From contig OX597838.1 of NCBI GenBank assembly GCA_951406725.2, forward strand, positions 6,448,001 through 6,512,000: 64,000 nt of DNA, written 5' to 3'. The DNA comes from Octopus vulgaris. Lineage: Eukaryota. The notes under the pieces were generated by a model. The model worked only from the letters and a program-made list of their open reading frames with translations, did no database searches and was not told where the DNA came from. Within the stretch, counting starts at the first letter, position 1, and each line of letters opens with the position of its first letter. This document shows positions 13,436 through 22,576 of the stretch, one piece after another. The translations under genes and the position numbers were made by a program.

Positions 13436-14039
13436 ATTTCATTTCTTCTCTTTGTGTTTGTGTCATTGCGATAGAAATAACATGAGTTCTCAGACTGCTG
13501 CTTACGTATGAAAAGAAGAGTATCTCCCTGTATAAAACCTCTTATCTAACACGGACCTTACCCATTTGTCTACAGCCGAATCCACATAATATGGCCCACC
13601 ACCCTCATCGCTTTCCTGATCAGGCCGACTAACCATACACAGCACAAACTTCATCGATCATATCTCTTTAAAAATGTCCGCAATGGTTGTGGGCACTAAT
13701 AATTTTTGTGTGTCTAGCTGGAAAATAAACATACCATCAATGTACACGATGCCTTCAAATATATTCATGATTAATATCGACTCTTCATTTCATGAACGAT
13801 AAAATAGCAATAACCTACTGAGCGTCATTAAATATGTACTCTGTATATTTGGCTTTATGAATATATGAGGAATCAATACATTTCTATTACGCATGTTTAA
13901 AATATTGCATATATATATATATATATGCATGTATGTATGTATGTATGTATGTAGAGTGCATATTAATGAGCGTTTGTATAGGTGTAAGTCACTTTTTCAG
14001 TGACATTCTCATTCTCGCTGTCCCTACACACTCACATAC

Positions 14040-14076
<37 letters not shown>

Positions 14077-14166
14077 GGGAGAAATAGAGAGAAAGATAGA
14101 GGGAGAGAGAGTGTGTGAGAGAGAGAGAGAGAGAGACACACACACAGACACACAAACAAACACACT

Positions 14167-14403
14167 CGTGTAACCTCGTCTGATTTTCCGTATAAATTCG
14201 ATGCTTACTTCCAAGGAATCTAATGCCCTTAGCTTAGTTTTTCCCTGCGGCCGGCTAGATTGGAACAATCTCAAGATTAACCAGCCGAAATTGCGAGGAT
14301 GGTCCGGTTCTTCACTGAGGATAGGAAGCTTCGAATGACCCTTTCTTGTGTTTTTTTGTCTTCTATCTGGATGTTTTGGGCTTTTGTCCCATATGGTGTA
14401 TTG
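14167..14403 (+). mobile_element. Interspersed structured repeat ending at (TA)n; second copy at 45045-45160 (minus)
   Basis: Shared CAGCCGAAATT..GATGGT.CGGT..TT.ACTGA.GAT.G.A.GCTTCGAATGA core followed by a T-rich tail. Confidence 0.6.
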
Positions 14404-14464
14404 TATATATATATATATATATATATGAAGATAGGTTGAAGGAAGACGTATTAAAGAGGCTCTC

Positions 14465-14552
<88 letters not shown>

Positions 14553-15709
14553 ACACATTTTAATATCCTACTGCTCCATATAGAATACGAACATAAAAAC
14601 ATGCAAGTGTTACTACTTCTGTGTCCGTCGATTCCTGCAAACCATCTTAAAATTAACGCAGAGCAGATCCCTGTGAAGGATGTCTAAATCTAACTTCATG
14701 CCTCCTATCAACGTACAATAAATTTCTTTTCGTCACAGAAACATCTCCAACATAGACATTCTGCAGTTTAACCGACCTCATATACGTTATGTCAATCTCA
14801 TATCTTGCACACGTTACGACAAAAACTTCACTGAGGTCTTGATACGTTAAATCAATTCTCACCTAGTAAAGTAAACAAACATATTTAGGTTTAAAATATG
14901 ACACCACTATAAGGAACGACACATGTAGAGCCTTTGAGGCAACTTAAAGTAAGCAAAATTCCTCTTCCACAGCACAGATGATAGGTAAATCATTACAACA
15001 TTTAGATACTAAAGATACTTTTTTGTCTACGGTAGATTATAACAGATATTATGCTAGAATATTTGAAAATTATTGCATATGAATTTGGGGAAATAATTTT
15101 CATATTAACAATTCCATTCAAAGGATTGACTTCCAGGTATAATTTAATTTAGAGTTGTCTCCACCCAAGCAAATAAAATCTACCAGCTTTTATTAAACCT
15201 AAAGGCTATTTATTGCAATTTGATGGATTGAACCTTTTTGAAATTTTTTTGCCATATTTTGGGGATGCGGGGAGTCTTGAAATTCTATAAATAATCTATC
15301 GAAGAAATAGTAAAATTTTCTCCAGCTCTGAATTGTGCTAAAGGCTCTGAAGCAACAGTGTATCATTTCAAAGGTTTTTCATTAGGGACTGAAAGTTATT
15401 AATAAACTGGCACCCCAATTTCTATAATTTAATAACAACAGCGAATTTCCTTAATGAATGCGGAAATAAACACGCATTCAGTTTAAAATTGTATGGTTTC
15501 ATGCAATTTTTCCTAATATATATCTATATATAAGTGTGTGTGTGTGTGTGCGTGTGTGTGTGCGTGTGTGTGTGTGGGGGGATACATATATATATATATA
15601 TATATATGCATAAGTGGGTGTGGATGTATACACTCACACACCATATATGCTCAAGAATTGAAGTATCTACATATATTCCAGTAAGTATATATGAATTGTA
15701 AATGGGTGC

Positions 15710-15752
<43 letters not shown>

Positions 15753-16509
15753 AGATATTTATTTATATTTGCGTATTTAAATATACACAAATACACATAC
15801 ACACACACATACGTGTATGCATACCAATGCCACTGTTTGATTTTAGGTATATTTCATTTATTTACTCTTCTCCTTCACGTATCTGTAAATGTCTTAAAAT
15901 GCCAGGTTTTCATCCTAACACTTCAATACTCAATACACACATATGGATTCAGCTCTTTGGAAATCTTGCTTCATTCACTCTCCGTCCCATCTTCCCACCG
16001 TTCCTCAATAAGTTCTTCCATGTTCATTCCTCCATTTTACTCCATTCACTCAGCTATTGACATAACAGTAAACCTTAATTTCTCTTATTTTCTTCCTAAT
16101 TAACATACTATTTCTATATAAGGCTTCTTGCCAAATTCTTTCACTATCATTTTATCAATTACTTATGTCATCCTAACCGGTTTTTTTTTTCCTTTACCTA
16201 ATCGATTCCATATCCATTTCCGAAGAAATTCTCCCTTTCTCCATAAAGTTATTGCATCGAATTGAATTTTCTGTTATTGTATGACACACAACTATTCTCT
16301 CCTTCATTTCTAGAAATTTCTTCTTCGTGTTTCTTTAATATTTTTCTAAATTCTTTTAGTTTCTCTTCCTTTTCATTTCTTTTCCCAAATTTGTTATATT
16401 TCTTCCCTCCTTATATACATAATTTTGCTTACATATATACTCAACTCGTATAGGAACCTCTTTTGATTGCTATTTTCCTACGAATTTTAACACACGCATA
16501 TATACCCAA

Positions 16510-16769
<260 letters not shown>

Positions 16770-16963
16770 CACTTACATACTTCCATGATATCAATACAGC
16801 AGAATCGACATTTTATTTAAGTTCTGAGGTTTGTAGAAGACGGAGTACTTTTCTAGTATTTACATTAAGACCGCTTTCATTTATTCATGAACAATGAAGG
16901 GCGAAATTTGTGGTGGACTGCCAACTGTTGATATATATATATATACATGTATATACATGTATA

Positions 16964-17034
<71 letters not shown>

Positions 17035-17161
17035 AACAGTAAAGAGTGAAAAAACTACAGAAGGCTTAAATGTTAAAAAATATATATATTTGCGTCAATA
17101 TGTCTGAAGAATATTAGAAAATTAAAAAAAAAGTAATTTCTCTTAAAATGACATAATTTAA

Positions 17162-17200
17162 AAGAAAGACCGGTTTCGCGTGTAGCTTTTGAAATTTCTT
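17162..17200 (-). ncRNA. Hammerhead-like motif with a non-canonical core
   Basis: Minus strand AAGAAA-TTTCAAAA-GC-TACAC-GC-GAAA-CCG-GTC-TTTCTT: perfect 6-bp stem I, 2-bp stem II, palindromic ACCGGT stem III, GUC triplet. Confidence 0.65.
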
Positions 17201-17344
17201 GCGACGTTATGTTTATGTTGAATAGTGTTATCTTTATGTTTATGTTCAGAAGAGTTCTAAATAAGGGGAGGTAGTGGGTGATTTCTTCCGGTGTAAGGGA
17301 GATAATCGCTTAATTTTTTTTCCTTTCCCTTGGTGTGAATTTCT

Positions 17345-17939
17345 CTATATCAGTATGTTCGGTTGGTTGAGTCTGGGCTTGTACTTTTCAATGAAGAATG
17401 TTTCCTTGTTTAGTCTAATTCGTGTTGATGATCCGAAAGCACATTGGTAAAATGGAAAGATTAAAAATTGTGGTAGTAGTTGCTTTGCGCATTTCTCAAT
17501 GTGCTCACTAACAGGTATCATTCTATATTCTGGGAATGCAATCTGTTGTCGATGCAGTGTGCATCTACGTCTGAGTGATAGTCCCGTGGAACCCACGTAG
17601 ACTTGGTGGCAGCCCGAGCATTTTATGACATAAATTATGTTTTCAGAGGCACAAGTAAAGTTAGATTTGATCTTGAATTTCTGTCCCTCTTTAAAGAGGA
17701 ATTCTGATCCTTCTAGCAGGTTAGAACATGTTGCACAGTTCGATCTACCACATTTTTTTACTTTTGCATCCGTAATTTCAGAAGACAATTTTGCCTTTGT
17801 GAGAATCTTTTTAAGTGATTTAGGCTGTTTGTAGCTTTTAATGATTTGGTGTATGTTTAGAATTTCCTTTAATTTGGGGTCTTTATGAAGTATTGGTAAA
17901 TTCTGGGTGATGATGGTGAAGGCTTCTTTGTTTCTGGGG

Positions 17940-17941
<2 letters not shown>
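17345..17941 (-). pseudogene. C-terminal fragment of a PLE polyprotein: RT thumb/linker, Cys-rich Zn finger and GIY-YIG endonuclease
   Basis: The frame stays open upstream of the listed ORF: NPRNKEAFTIITQNLPILHKDP...IKSYKQPKSLKKILTKAK, then CGRSNCATC...FTC, NIIYVIKCSGCHQVYVGST, R...H, EH, IFPFYQ, RLNKETFFIEKYKPRLN. No internal stops over about 198 codons. Confidence 0.92.
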
Positions 17942-17975
<34 letters not shown>

Positions 17976-17981
<6 letters not shown>

Positions 17982-18107
17982 AAACAGGACAGAAAATACT
18001 ATGGAAAGTCGTATACTATATTATTATAGGAAGACATTCCTATGATAATATTGTATACGACTTGTGAAGTTTGCCTTGCTTTAAAGTTTGCTGACCTGTT
18101 TAACAAT
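17976..18107. mobile_element. Fold-back mini-element with TGT...ACA TIRs and an internal 27-bp hairpin
   Basis: ATTGTTAAACAGG / CCTGTTTAACAAT; inner arms 18006-18032 and 18037-18063 differ at two positions. Confidence 0.75.
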
Positions 18108-18252
18108 TATATATCCGTTGCGTTGGAAATCTGCAATGGTTCCATAACTACCGTCTCGGCTATAAACCTACAGCCCCGGATATGCTTTACAGCACTTACC
18201 TAGCGTACCTAATTGTTTAGATCCCCTGTAATCAAAACCCCATACTTTGTAT

Positions 18253-18301
<49 letters not shown>

Positions 18302-18309
18302 TGTGTGTG

Positions 18310-18590
18310 AGTGATCCAAGGATGGGGTAGAAAGGGCTCCTTAGCCGTAGTGAAGGCAATCGATCTAGGAAGATAACCTTACAATAAATCACTGGGTCCG
18401 TAGCTTAGAAATACTGGGTTGACGTCCAGCGGGAACAGCTTTGTTTCATGGAGGAGGAAAGATCTTCTTTAGTACTTGGTTGTACAATGCTTTCCAATGT
18501 GTGTAGTAGTGGCGCGCGCACACATTATTAGCCATTTGAAAATACTATGAAAGTCTCGACCACGGTCGAACAATGATGATGAATGATGAT
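18310..18590 (+). mobile_element. Probable RTE-related short retroposon fragment
   Basis: GAAGGCAATCGATCTAGGA resembles RTE 5'UTR motifs; ends in a (TGA)n-like tail. Confidence 0.35.
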
Positions 18591-18983
18591 CCAAGGATTG
18601 AGGTTATTTCAGGAATAAATATGATATTCATTAGGGTCATTATCGTAGGGATATAGGTACTTATGTAGCACTCTGAGAAGAGGAAATCGATTTAAAGTTT
18701 AAGAAAGTTCTCCGGATAGAACAGAATACGTTGATTTGATACTGCGTTCATCTCACCCATTCATAATTTCAACCTTGCATTTCAATATCTGCAAACAACA
18801 GAGATTTGATCCATATATATCGCGAACATATGGATTAATGGTTGTATCGATGTTCCCCGTTCTATGAAAATCGACATTTTTGCTCTCTACGCACCACTCG
18901 TTCGCAAAGATCGCTGTTCTTTTCGCTCTGCCATTCCTAAATGTATTGAGATGATTATATATTCTCGATTTGAAACTGATGCA

Positions 18984-19027
<44 letters not shown>

Positions 19028-19599
19028 TACATAGACAGACACACACATGCACACTCATATCTATATACATACATACCTTGATACATACATACGCATAATT
19101 ATATATGTTTATATATGTTTGTGTGTGTATGTATTGTGCGTATACATATACATCTACATACAGAAGTTGTACCGAAAAACATTGAATTAGCAGCAATCAT
19201 TGAAATAAATATATAAAGAATGTTTATACACTATGATCACTGAACCATTATAAACGATATCTACTTTACAGCCATATCAATCAAATACAATCATTTCGTA
19301 GATAGCCGTACACACATATTTGGTTTGTTTGCTTTCTTTTACTGTTTCCTATATTTGAAAGTATTCAGTTCCAATTATTTTGAACTTATATAAGGAACTT
19401 ATAACATATATGTCTGTGACGTGTGTTCATTAATTACTAGTTTCTTTAGATAAATCTAAATTATTTTCAACTGTTGCCATCCGTGTGCTTTACATAAATG
19501 ACTCGTCTATGTAGATAAGTGTCTCTCACAATTTTATATCCTGATATGAATGTGTTGTAGCATATGTCTGCTATCAACATATGCAAAAACCACAACACA

Positions 19600-20040
19600 C
19601 TTCAGAATACTCCTCTTCTCACTCTTTCCCACTCATCTCGACTCTGCACTTCTTTCAATTCCCTGGTCACTCACTCCTCCCTATCCCTGATCTGCATCTC
19701 TTATCATTTCTTGATCTCACCCTGCTACAACACTCTCCTCCCACTGAACTGCCGACATCCTCCAGTCTATTCTATTCACCTTCTTTTTAACCGACTCTAA
19801 CCGTAAATTCTCTTCCATTATGACTTGAACCGCCACTTGCCCTTCTTTTCACCTTCAAAACAGAGACCACCTTTTCGTGAATACTTATATGCATCCATTA
19901 CTGGTTGCGTATTGTTGTCCTTTTGCACCCACTTTTTACTAACATTACAACTATTACGTAATTCTCAGCCTCCAGAAACAGCGGTCTGACCTGAAATACC
20001 ATACCCTCTCCTCTTACGTTTCTATAATACTTGTACCCCT
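19600..20040 (-). pseudogene. Highly decayed LINE (RTE-like) AP-endonuclease end and linker
   Basis: Minus-strand fragments LKVKRRASGGSSH and EENLRLE resemble the DV.V.RGA...SDH...LRL motif; purine-rich strand bias; many disruptions. Confidence 0.3.
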
Positions 20041-20236
20041 TGCGAATTTCTAGGTTCTAAAGGTAAAGATTTTCTCTCTTTCCCGACCGTCAGACTAATA
20101 CACCTCCTTCTTGTTCATACACCTGACTTCGTCTTTTGTTTTTCAGAAAATTTCAACTATATATATATGTATATATATATATATGTCTCTCTGTCTCTCT
20201 CTCTCTCTCTCTGTCTATATATATATATATATTTAC

Positions 20237-20280
<44 letters not shown>

Positions 20281-20287
20281 CTATCTG

Positions 20288-20359
<72 letters not shown>

Positions 20360-20361
20360 TG

Positions 20362-20404
<43 letters not shown>

Positions 20405-21511
20405 TTACATGTTTATTTATATTTTATATGCATCACTTTCTCTATCACAACTCAGGTGGAATCATTTTATAGCGACTCCTTACGCTGCGGACTTAGTTCT
20501 AGACATAATCTCCGGCATGTAAGCCCAAATTGTTAGAGCTCTATTTAGTGTTGTCTATATTGAGCTTCCCTAGATATTTACCTGTTGACAAGGTACATGA
20601 TTAAACGTAAATGTGCGTTGGTGTGCATGTGCATATGTATGCATGATGCATGTCTTTATGTGTATATGTTAGCATTAAAGTCTCATAATTCTGTCGTTCA
20701 CTGGAAATATCGTAGGAGCGTTTAGAACATTTTGATGCATGAGAAACTGTTGCTAAGTATACTACGCGTGTAAATATGGCTTCCTAGAACATGTGTGCAG
20801 AATTCTAACGAACTGGATAAGTCTTATTAAATTATACATCGAGACTATTTCATATTTTTATCTATAGCCATTAACATCTGATCCATTTTATATATATTTC
20901 CAAACATATCCAGAGTTGAACTTAGTCATACTGGGAAGAGTAACGGTCATTAACAAATAAAACAGAAGCAGTTTTATTTCGTCAGTATATATTCATTTCA
21001 TTTTACGGTCTTTCATCGCGTATCCATTAAATATGTTGACACTAACTTAACTCGTTACCAGTTTCTTTTTCATGGGTAATACATCATTACACTATATATT
21101 TTCGAAAGAATTTTAATTTCCTTTACTAGGTTATCATATATGGGATATTTTAGGTTTATTGCGCGACTGGTTCATCAGTTCTTTTTCATCTGGTTTTCGT
21201 TTGCTTTACTGATTCTGTTGCTATTTGTGCAAATATTTTACTGTTGCGTAGAAAATGTATCATGCCCATCACTTTCGATGAAGAGAAGTTCAAAATATAT
21301 TATAGCAGACTGATATTATAGGAAAATAAAAGCTAAATGATAAACTTTTTTCATCCACTTTACAGGGATGGTACACAACTAAAACCAAAACTGTAATATT
21401 GCATGCTGAAGTAAAATTATATATATATATATATATAGTCACCTATCTCGAAAAAGTGTAAAGAAGCAATACTAAATCTCTGAACGAGGTATAAACAGTA
21501 GCCGCACGACA

Positions 21512-21671
21512 ATGTGAAGTATATTTGCCACTTAAATGTGGCTAACCTCTAAGGGTGGATGCTACTGTAGCTTGTGTCTCCAGGAGAACATCTTCTCCAG
21601 CTGTCGATTGACACACTTTCTGTGCTCTATGAGTATTTGCAAAGGAAAGCCACATTTAAGTGGCAAATATA

Positions 21672-21679
<8 letters not shown>
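21512..21679. mobile_element. MITE with about 32-bp TIRs (25 bp perfect) next to (TA)n
   Basis: GTATATTTGCCACTTAAATGTGGCT (21519-21543) and its exact reverse complement (21648-21672). Confidence 0.8.
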
Positions 21680-21722
<43 letters not shown>

Positions 21723-22576
21723 TATATTCACATATATGTATATAAATGCATAGGTACAGAAGGAAAAAGAGAGATTAGCTGACAAGTAGAAAGTTCCAGC
21801 GTTTGCATAAAGGGAACGGCATCCAAATATTTAGAGGTGTAAAGAGAACATATGTCAGATGTCACATATATTTCCAAGAGGCAGTGAAATCTTTCCAGCA
21901 GTTACAATTATTCAGATATAATTCAAACACATTTCGTTTCCTGCAGCATTGTATTTTCTTTAATTTGGAATTACTATAATAATTACATCTGTCACAAAAA
22001 ATATCAATGATAGTTGTAAACGTTTATAATTACAAACAAAATTTTAATATGTTTTAAACCTATCAAATGAATATAAAGAAATAGAGTTTTCGAGAAATAT
22101 TTTCTCCTGAAGAGTATTAAAAATGATGTGTCACTACGATGTTATTGCATTCGCCTTAGGATGAGAAAATGATGAATACAACTGTTACACAGAATATCTA
22201 CTAATGTCCATGAGCGTTTATGCTCAAAATACTTAGCAAAAATACTAATGGCAAATTTAAAGTAATTCGAAACATAATAGGCATGTATCGGATGTGTTCA
22301 AATTTATTTCACGTTTGCTTCATCAATTCCAGTATAATTTGTACACGTTCAGTTTCCGTACAAATTTTTCTCACTCACGCTGTTAAAAGGTCGCAGTTTC
22401 GTTTGGCAAGAGTTGAGGGATCGAAGAATTAGTGTATATTTGCATTCGAATTGCATATATATTGAAATAATGACCAAAAGCATGCTCCATGTTTCCGAGT
22501 GATTTCTTTCTGTAATATAGTATTTATGCGTATCTTCATAACTAATACGAGTCTTTTAATATATATGTATGTATAT

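Follow-up and report, generated by a model that had tools for sequence, protein, structure and literature searches.

The window analyzed here, a 64,000-nt stretch of Octopus vulgaris DNA (contig OX597838.1, positions 6,448,001 to 6,512,000), contains on its minus strand a 5'-truncated copy of a Penelope-like retrotransposon (PLE) of about 910 nt (17031..17941), which comprises the end of an open reading frame and the 3' UTR/pLTR of a parent of about 4 kb. The C-terminal 198 codons (17345..17941, minus strand) encode a CX4CxxC linker with the sequence CGRSNCATC and a GIY-YIG endonuclease and end at a TAG that is private to this copy; the GIY-YIG profile match of this frame is weak (19.6 bits vs a cut-off of 22.6). 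The copy is bordered by two (TA)n runs, neither assigned to a strand, of which the one at 16977..17031 forms the 3' junction and is likely the target site, with the same arrangement in siblings, while the one at 17941..17977 borders the truncated 5' side. The window copy stands alone as a 3' end, and its own element has no same-strand partner motif. Further along the window, the stretch at 18330-18420, located between microsatellites, resembles by eye a part of another repeat.

The initial annotation had placed a hammerhead-like motif about 145 nt past the GIY-YIG stop. Its letters could be read exactly as given on the minus strand of 17162-17200, and the distance to the stop at 17347-17345 is 144 nt, although the stop itself occurs in the window copy only. 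Read 5' to 3' on the minus strand, the motif consists of the 5' strand of stem I (AAGAAA, 17195..17200), a U at position 2.1 (17194) that is unpaired in this copy, its partner A1.1 apparently having been lost in the ancestor of its subfamily grade, and the core U3-U4-C5-A6-A7-A8-A9 (17187..17193), which in the family reads U3-U4-G5-A6-A7-A8-A9 and here carries a private G5C substitution at 17191. The core is followed by a stem II of 2 bp (G10.1:C11.1 and C:G, the latter U:A in older lineages) with a 5-nt loop (17178..17186), by G12-A13-A14 together with the palindromic stem III ACCGGU (17169..17177), which is predicted to pair between two copies (partial text of PMC4209133), by C17 with the predicted cut site (17167..17168) and by the 3' strand of stem I (UUUCUU, 17162..17167). 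The cut predicted between 17168 and 17167 had been rightly placed, with C17 at 17168. GAAA, A15.1:U16.1 and the NUH triplet are all present (GAAA-CCGG-UC); a core with intact G5 and A6, be it CUGANGA or the U3-A8 covariant, is found in the family and not in the window copy with its C5, which also lacks the 2.1:1.1 pair that would close stem I directly beside position 3.

Relatives of this copy are abundant in the 2.8-Gb genome. A DNA search, in which the best 40 of 2,406 candidates were scored, gave 42 matches with full-length siblings at 93-96% identity, and a protein search (best 150 of 20,468 candidates scored) gave 95-100% identity. The frames of the fetched full-length copies span 806-869 aa, with RT+GIY-YIG frames of 811-850 aa in full-length siblings, and both of the two full-length frames tested exceed the RVT_1 cut-off of 29.6 (30.9 and 32.4 bits). 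Many of the 566 homologues found at E<=1e-30 carry RT and GIY-YIG domains, with PF01541 present in the full-length ones. In five elements (L080, L081, L086, L101 and L109) the motif occurs twice on the same strand, 3,977-3,997 nt apart, and inverted truncated arms with TA flanks are seen at many loci of the family. Judged by its sequence, the layout is that of an EN+ PLE with a Neptune/Nematis linker: as outlined in the partial text of PMC8557442, elements of this type likewise have a C-terminal GIY-YIG, a CX2-5CxxC linker, pLTRs, tandem and inverted copies, (TA)n targets, a hammerhead near the 3' end and an optional frameshifted ORF1. Hereby, we call the family Neptune-like by the CX2-5CxxC linker and the (TA)n junctions and not by an RT tree, the linker being common to Nematis too (PMC8557442).

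Two further observations concern the host element. The full-length elements possess, ahead of the RT frame (L080:2066-4501) and overlapping it in the -1 phase, another frame of about 495 codons (L080:753-2240). No early ATG is present in the RT frame, and a G/C-rich stretch comes after a U-UUU-UUA heptamer located near L080:2171-2178. Programmed frameshifting between the two frames appears likely from these features, and a frameshifted ORF1 has already been drawn as an option for PLEs (PMC8557442). Moreover, the PLE RT/GIY-YIG proteins P0026, P0040, P0054, P0065, P0076 and P0083 are filed under bacterial symbionts of bivalves; the assemblies in question are likely contaminated by the host, a difficulty to which PMC8557442 draws attention.

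The unusual core was considered in the initial annotation as a possible family-level rewriting, i.e. UUUCAAAA including G5C would characterize the family, and this reading is refuted by counts. When position 5 was left free and the 32 other letters were fixed, 140 genomic matches were obtained, 135 of which keep G5; the exceptions have C (two), A (two) or T (one). Likewise, G5 is near-fixed in two other organisms (contig depths of 53,012/53,046 and 11,100/11,100), two further runs having no coverage at this position, and present in all three RNA-guessed contig runs that cover the site. While two C5 copies do exist, which is what a family-level UUUCAAAA would need, they are only two of 140, and the second one (L061) likely acquired its C5 by an independent mutation, since it has other subfamily markers than the window copy; virtually no probability is thus left for this reading. 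The same holds when copies are picked by protein similarity instead of by motif: among 79 distinct endonuclease ends, 75 could be parsed, yielding 72 UUGAAAA cores, one UUCAAAA (the window copy), one UUGAAGA, one AUGAAAA and no CUGANGA, and of the four unparsed ends three read UUGAAAA by eye and one is without the motif.

The intact 198-codon frame, which had been put forward as an argument against random decay, does not serve this purpose, because the frame's own stop is private, TAG at 17347 being a substitution in a codon that reads CAG in siblings, where the frame continues, and because the probability of finding no internal stop after its six private substitutions is 0.71. Over 881 nt, 16 substitutions in total occur in the window copy alone, and its tip length of 0.022 is tied for the longest among close siblings. 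G5C is among the core mutations employed to block catalysis (partial text of PMC11875169); since it blocks catalysis elsewhere, the window copy, which also has no same-strand partner, is likely inert, that is, a mutated, probably dead version of the U3:A8 minimal hammerhead carried by a Neptune-like element. For a non-catalytic role of the window copy itself there is no evidence. Being a case of decay in a variant already published, it carries little weight, and it is the family that may be useful.

The second component of the proposed rewriting, a compensatory exchange of C3:G8 for U3:A8, was borne out at the family level. With the eight letters after AGAAA left free, the scaffold gives 1,552 genomic matches (reversed control: 0), and among the matches listed (100 of 1,552) 90 read UUUGAAAA with U3:A8 and ten read UUUGAAGA with U3·G8, while none has C3:G8. 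U3:A8 in PLE hammerheads is already published and not new: U3-A8 hammerheads with about 1,300 hits are described for the Cercyon PLEs of Schistosoma (PMC4209133), and natural U3:A8 covariation as well as earlier in vitro activity is reported in the partial text of PMC3088659. The U3·G8 form (UUGAAGA) belongs to a lineage with unpaired U (L101, L103, L311-L330), has 167 matches and includes full-length tandem copies such as L101; of the 20 loci fetched, 19 are unpaired at the matched site. For the activity of a U3·G8 pair no source was found in the literature searched, outside which lie the papers on 3:8 exchange by Przybilski & Hammann (2007) and Nelson & Uhlenbeck (2008a, b).

The third component, an extra U in front of position 3, is indeed common to hundreds of siblings (706) but it is not an insertion: the U corresponds to U2.1, which is unpaired because its partner A1.1 is lost. 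An alternative register, with U2.1 opposite U1.1 and a shifted stem, was rejected by inspection since an A·C mismatch arises. Exact counts with position 8 free, which therefore include U3·G8 copies, amount to 635 for GUA with A1.1, 49 for GUC with A1.1 and 706 for GUC without A1.1 as in the window copy; by subtraction about 160 of the 1,552 remain, the patterns differing slightly in extent, and, going by the listed rows, GUA lacking A1.1 probably makes up most of them. Beyond these, 483 matches differ in the second base of stem II. Of 30 loci from these older lineages, some of them overlapping, 29 have A1.1, with U, A or C at position 17 and often G-U...A-C as stem II. The oldest lineage (L281, L286-L289, L295, L298-L305) has about one clear pair left in stem II, G...C closing an A-rich loop, together with an intact U3:A8 core and a GUU site. 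Hence, as regards the reading as a family-level variant, U3:A8 and the unpaired U stand and G5C does not, and the unpaired extra base, common to about half of the family, is its only mildly unusual feature.

To order these forms we calculated a tree of 60 copies (36 of the 79 earlier rows, 10 paired-GUC rows with one duplicate dropped, and 14 older rows) from which the motif columns had been removed. The tree forms a ladder from paired GUU through paired GUA and paired GUC to a 100/100 branch leading to an initially unpaired clade, which holds the window copy and within which paired GUA is nested. From this topology, A1.1 is inferred to have been lost in one ancestor. The direction of the ladder is itself inferred, because the root was set on the most diverged copies, four named rows that do not form one exact side of a branch (a five-row GUU clade does). 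Divergence within the groups agrees with this direction, being 1.75% for paired GUC, 0.3-0.7% for the unpaired groups and 0.08-0.14% for the nested paired GUA; for the latter, the youngest subfamily with 635 copies, the mean is 0.14% in six sampled copies. Six changes of pairing are required on the tree, among them a loss confined to L258 and the solitary paired copies L105 and L256. The youngest paired-GUA group sits on a long UTR branch (0.19), which suggests recombination and makes the number of re-pairing events uncertain. Other attempts at rooting were of little use: a search for a closer outgroup in the genome with the C-terminus of P0001 (75-77% identity) led, in all of the 13 loci inspected out of 30, to the same family or its older lineages, and an amino-acid rooting on P0001-P0006 offered two weakly informative sites only. 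A tentative reading of the whole, for which we see a limited chance, is a lineage series in which a stem I base was lost, one branch gave up its Watson-Crick 3:8 pair for U3·G8, hundreds of copies were made, and the stem was restored in the youngest burst.

One may ask whether the likeness to a hammerhead is a product of chance in an AT-rich UTR. Folding of the motif alone is no better than that of shuffled sequences (z +0.93), and none of the Rfam hammerhead models, with which scoring had been proposed, matches the window motif, be it in 14000-22000 or in 101-nt stretches of the window copy and of the fully paired family form L080 (E up to 10). A chance origin is nonetheless highly improbable, given that position and layout are those of canonical hammerheads in related PLEs, in line with the initial assignment to the minimal Penelope type. 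A descriptor scan of 80 metagenome loci of related elements found motifs in ten, namely eight canonical cores and two UUGAAAA (L214, L232). Hereby, L171, L174, L176 and L178, at 43-48% protein identity, combine canonical CUGAUGA cores with the layout of the window family, down to the short stem II and the palindrome in stem III, and their stem I sequences are unrelated yet complementary; L214 and L232 are more distant. The canonical L171 itself scores 19 bits against Rfam Hammerhead_1 (RF00163), the gathering score of which is 34. From these relatives it follows that ordinary PLE hammerheads are homologues of the window motif and that the exchange at 3:8 recurs. Chance would likewise have to account for the 1,552 scaffold matches as opposed to none for the reversed control, for the covariation expected of a structured RNA, which is seen at stem I, at stem II (U:A/C:G at pair 2 across lineages) and at 3:8, and for position 17, which is U, A or C across lineages with no G among the rows inspected, so that NUH is kept. 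The motif is thus, with good confidence, a mutated minimal type I hammerhead of a PLE family in which U3:A8 is the norm, with a private G5C that likely leaves this copy inactive.

Among published hammerheads, those of Cercyon in S. mansoni are the closest parallel, being minimal type I motifs with a U3-A8 core, palindromic stem III, G10.1:C11.1 and predicted dimer action that reside in the pLTRs of an element with RT and GIY-YIG (PMC4209133). The two differ in helix II, which has 2 bp in the window family and 7-8 bp in Cercyon, in the extra base between 9 and 10.1, which is present in the Cercyon consensus and absent here, in a 2-nt palindromic insert in stem III of the window family, and in U2.1 being unpaired in about half of its copies with U3·G8 in one lineage (PMC4209133). 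The 2-bp stem II with G10.1:C11.1 and no base after A9 is as in the canonical-core relatives L171 and L176, and in the partial text of PMC3088659, which also reports U3:A8 covariation among natural core variants, a 2-bp stem II is noted as common. Three saltern hammerheads described in the same source, all from viral metagenomes, have additional bases (2a, 2b) separating stem I from position 3; the one tested, with an insertion of 2 nt, was impaired in cleavage, and such insertions were called unprecedented. In comparison with these cases the window family has a single U orphaned by partner loss and occurs in hundreds of copies of an animal retrotransposon. Hammerheads with unpaired U and with U3·G8 were not found for animals in the literature searched, of which Lunse, Weinberg & Breaker (RNA Biol 2016) was not a part. 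That paper, going by its title, reportedly deals with small PLE-associated hammerhead variants that cleave as dimers. Among the papers listed for octopus Penelope hammerheads none deals with this family, judging by the titles and the opening lines of the abstracts.

Position and anatomy of the motif, its occurrence once per pLTR and its palindrome, all observed in this analysis, are compatible with the dimer mechanism drawn in PMC4209133. Two copies would pair via their palindromic ACCGGU stems, for which we computed a self-duplex of -8.3 kcal/mol, and, as predicted, would cut 3' of position 17, thereby setting free RNA of unit length that is possibly circularized and used as template for reverse transcription primed at (TA)n (PMC4209133). 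In the predicted dimer minimum the paired forms have hammerhead-like stems, unlike the unpaired GUC form as represented by the window copy and its G5 sibling L002. At their 3' side, genomic copies terminate at an internal TA run that is about 135 nt downstream of the cut site, so the templates would have been uncut there or circular. Among 262 segments, a sample biased to motif-bearing copies, no 5' end was found within 3 nt of the cut, the nearest being at -7, -4 and +4. For parts of the region there is coverage from four RNA-guessed contig runs, which, being contigs, carry no RNA-end information. The unpaired U probably lowers the function of the motif and would not have abolished it, since elements with unpaired U kept multiplying; the youngest burst, by sequence, has the 2.1:1.1 pair again. 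A slower reaction of the unpaired form is probable because extra bases before position 3 impaired the saltern hammerhead (PMC3088659). Of the published metazoan minimal hammerheads only weak cleavage in vitro is reported (PMC4209133).

An alternative is that after the loss of A1.1, and in one lineage also A8G, the motif stopped cutting and was either kept as a dimerization or RT-binding signal or merely hitchhiked, cleavage being dispensable. Such a view could draw on the 706 unpaired GUC copies, on full-length tandem elements that recur through no fewer than four subfamilies in succession, on the 167 copies with U3·G8 in addition, on the impairment by 2a/2b insertions (PMC3088659), on the lack of 5' ends at the cut in the motif-biased sample, and on PMC8557442 (partial text), where the function of hammerheads in EN+ PLEs is called unclear and Naiads are described to spread without canonical ones. 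We nevertheless regard it as unlikely. The core apparently continued to be conserved: on internal branches 17 core sites show one change, as opposed to the 18.3 expected if they evolved like the 242 UTR sites, with 11 changes at seven free sites, and during the unpaired-U phase a modest signal is left, with one core change, A8G within the 3:8 pair, vs 6.2 expected (P 0.015). This test is inflated, since core letters were fixed in the patterns by which many of the rows had been retrieved, and the tip branches are likewise depleted (5 vs 18.8). The motif-free tally of the 79 ends, the variation of position 17 within NUH and the covariation of stem II point weakly in the same direction. In the unpaired phase the only move at position 17 was from C to A, stem I is fully paired once more in the youngest subfamily (635 copies), and unpaired copies could have moved in trans or via mixed dimers.

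On the preferred reading, the unpaired-U and U3·G8 variants probably kept transposing with a weakened ribozyme. Whether hammerhead cleavage is needed for PLE retrotransposition is stated to be open (PMC8557442). Should cleavage be absent from the unpaired-U and U3·G8 forms, PLE mobility would do without the ribozyme; should the dimers of these forms cleave efficiently, they would represent core variants that we did not find in print for animals. The family provides a natural series of six variants in succession, with paired GUU, GUA and GUC, unpaired GUC and GUA, U3·G8 and again paired GUA, which comes with rough ages and copy numbers, so that activity can be compared to transposition success.

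A family consensus with canonical CTGANGA, which had been named as the outcome that would overturn the initial reading, was not encountered: there is no canonical-core sister family among the matches listed (100 of 1,552 core-free matches) or among the 79 protein-picked ends. Searches based on CUGANGA, as well as Rfam, overlook all copies of this family. CTGANGA matches do occur in the genome (109, of which 100 are listed) and were considered as a sister family; among the matches listed they mostly belong to a different 359-bp repeat. Tandem repeats of about 359 bp with a canonical CUGACGA hammerhead are found at G000:C1:20002279-20004541 (L113-L119) and at about 100 other places, often in an inverted PLE-like arrangement (109 pattern matches vs one in the control), and look like a retrozyme of the kind described in PMC7229834. 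Two canonical-core matches, at G000:C3:49264151-49264173 and C14:28478707-28478729, combine a GC...GC stem II of 2 bp with a stem III palindrome identical to that of the window family, of which they are possibly a canonical relative.
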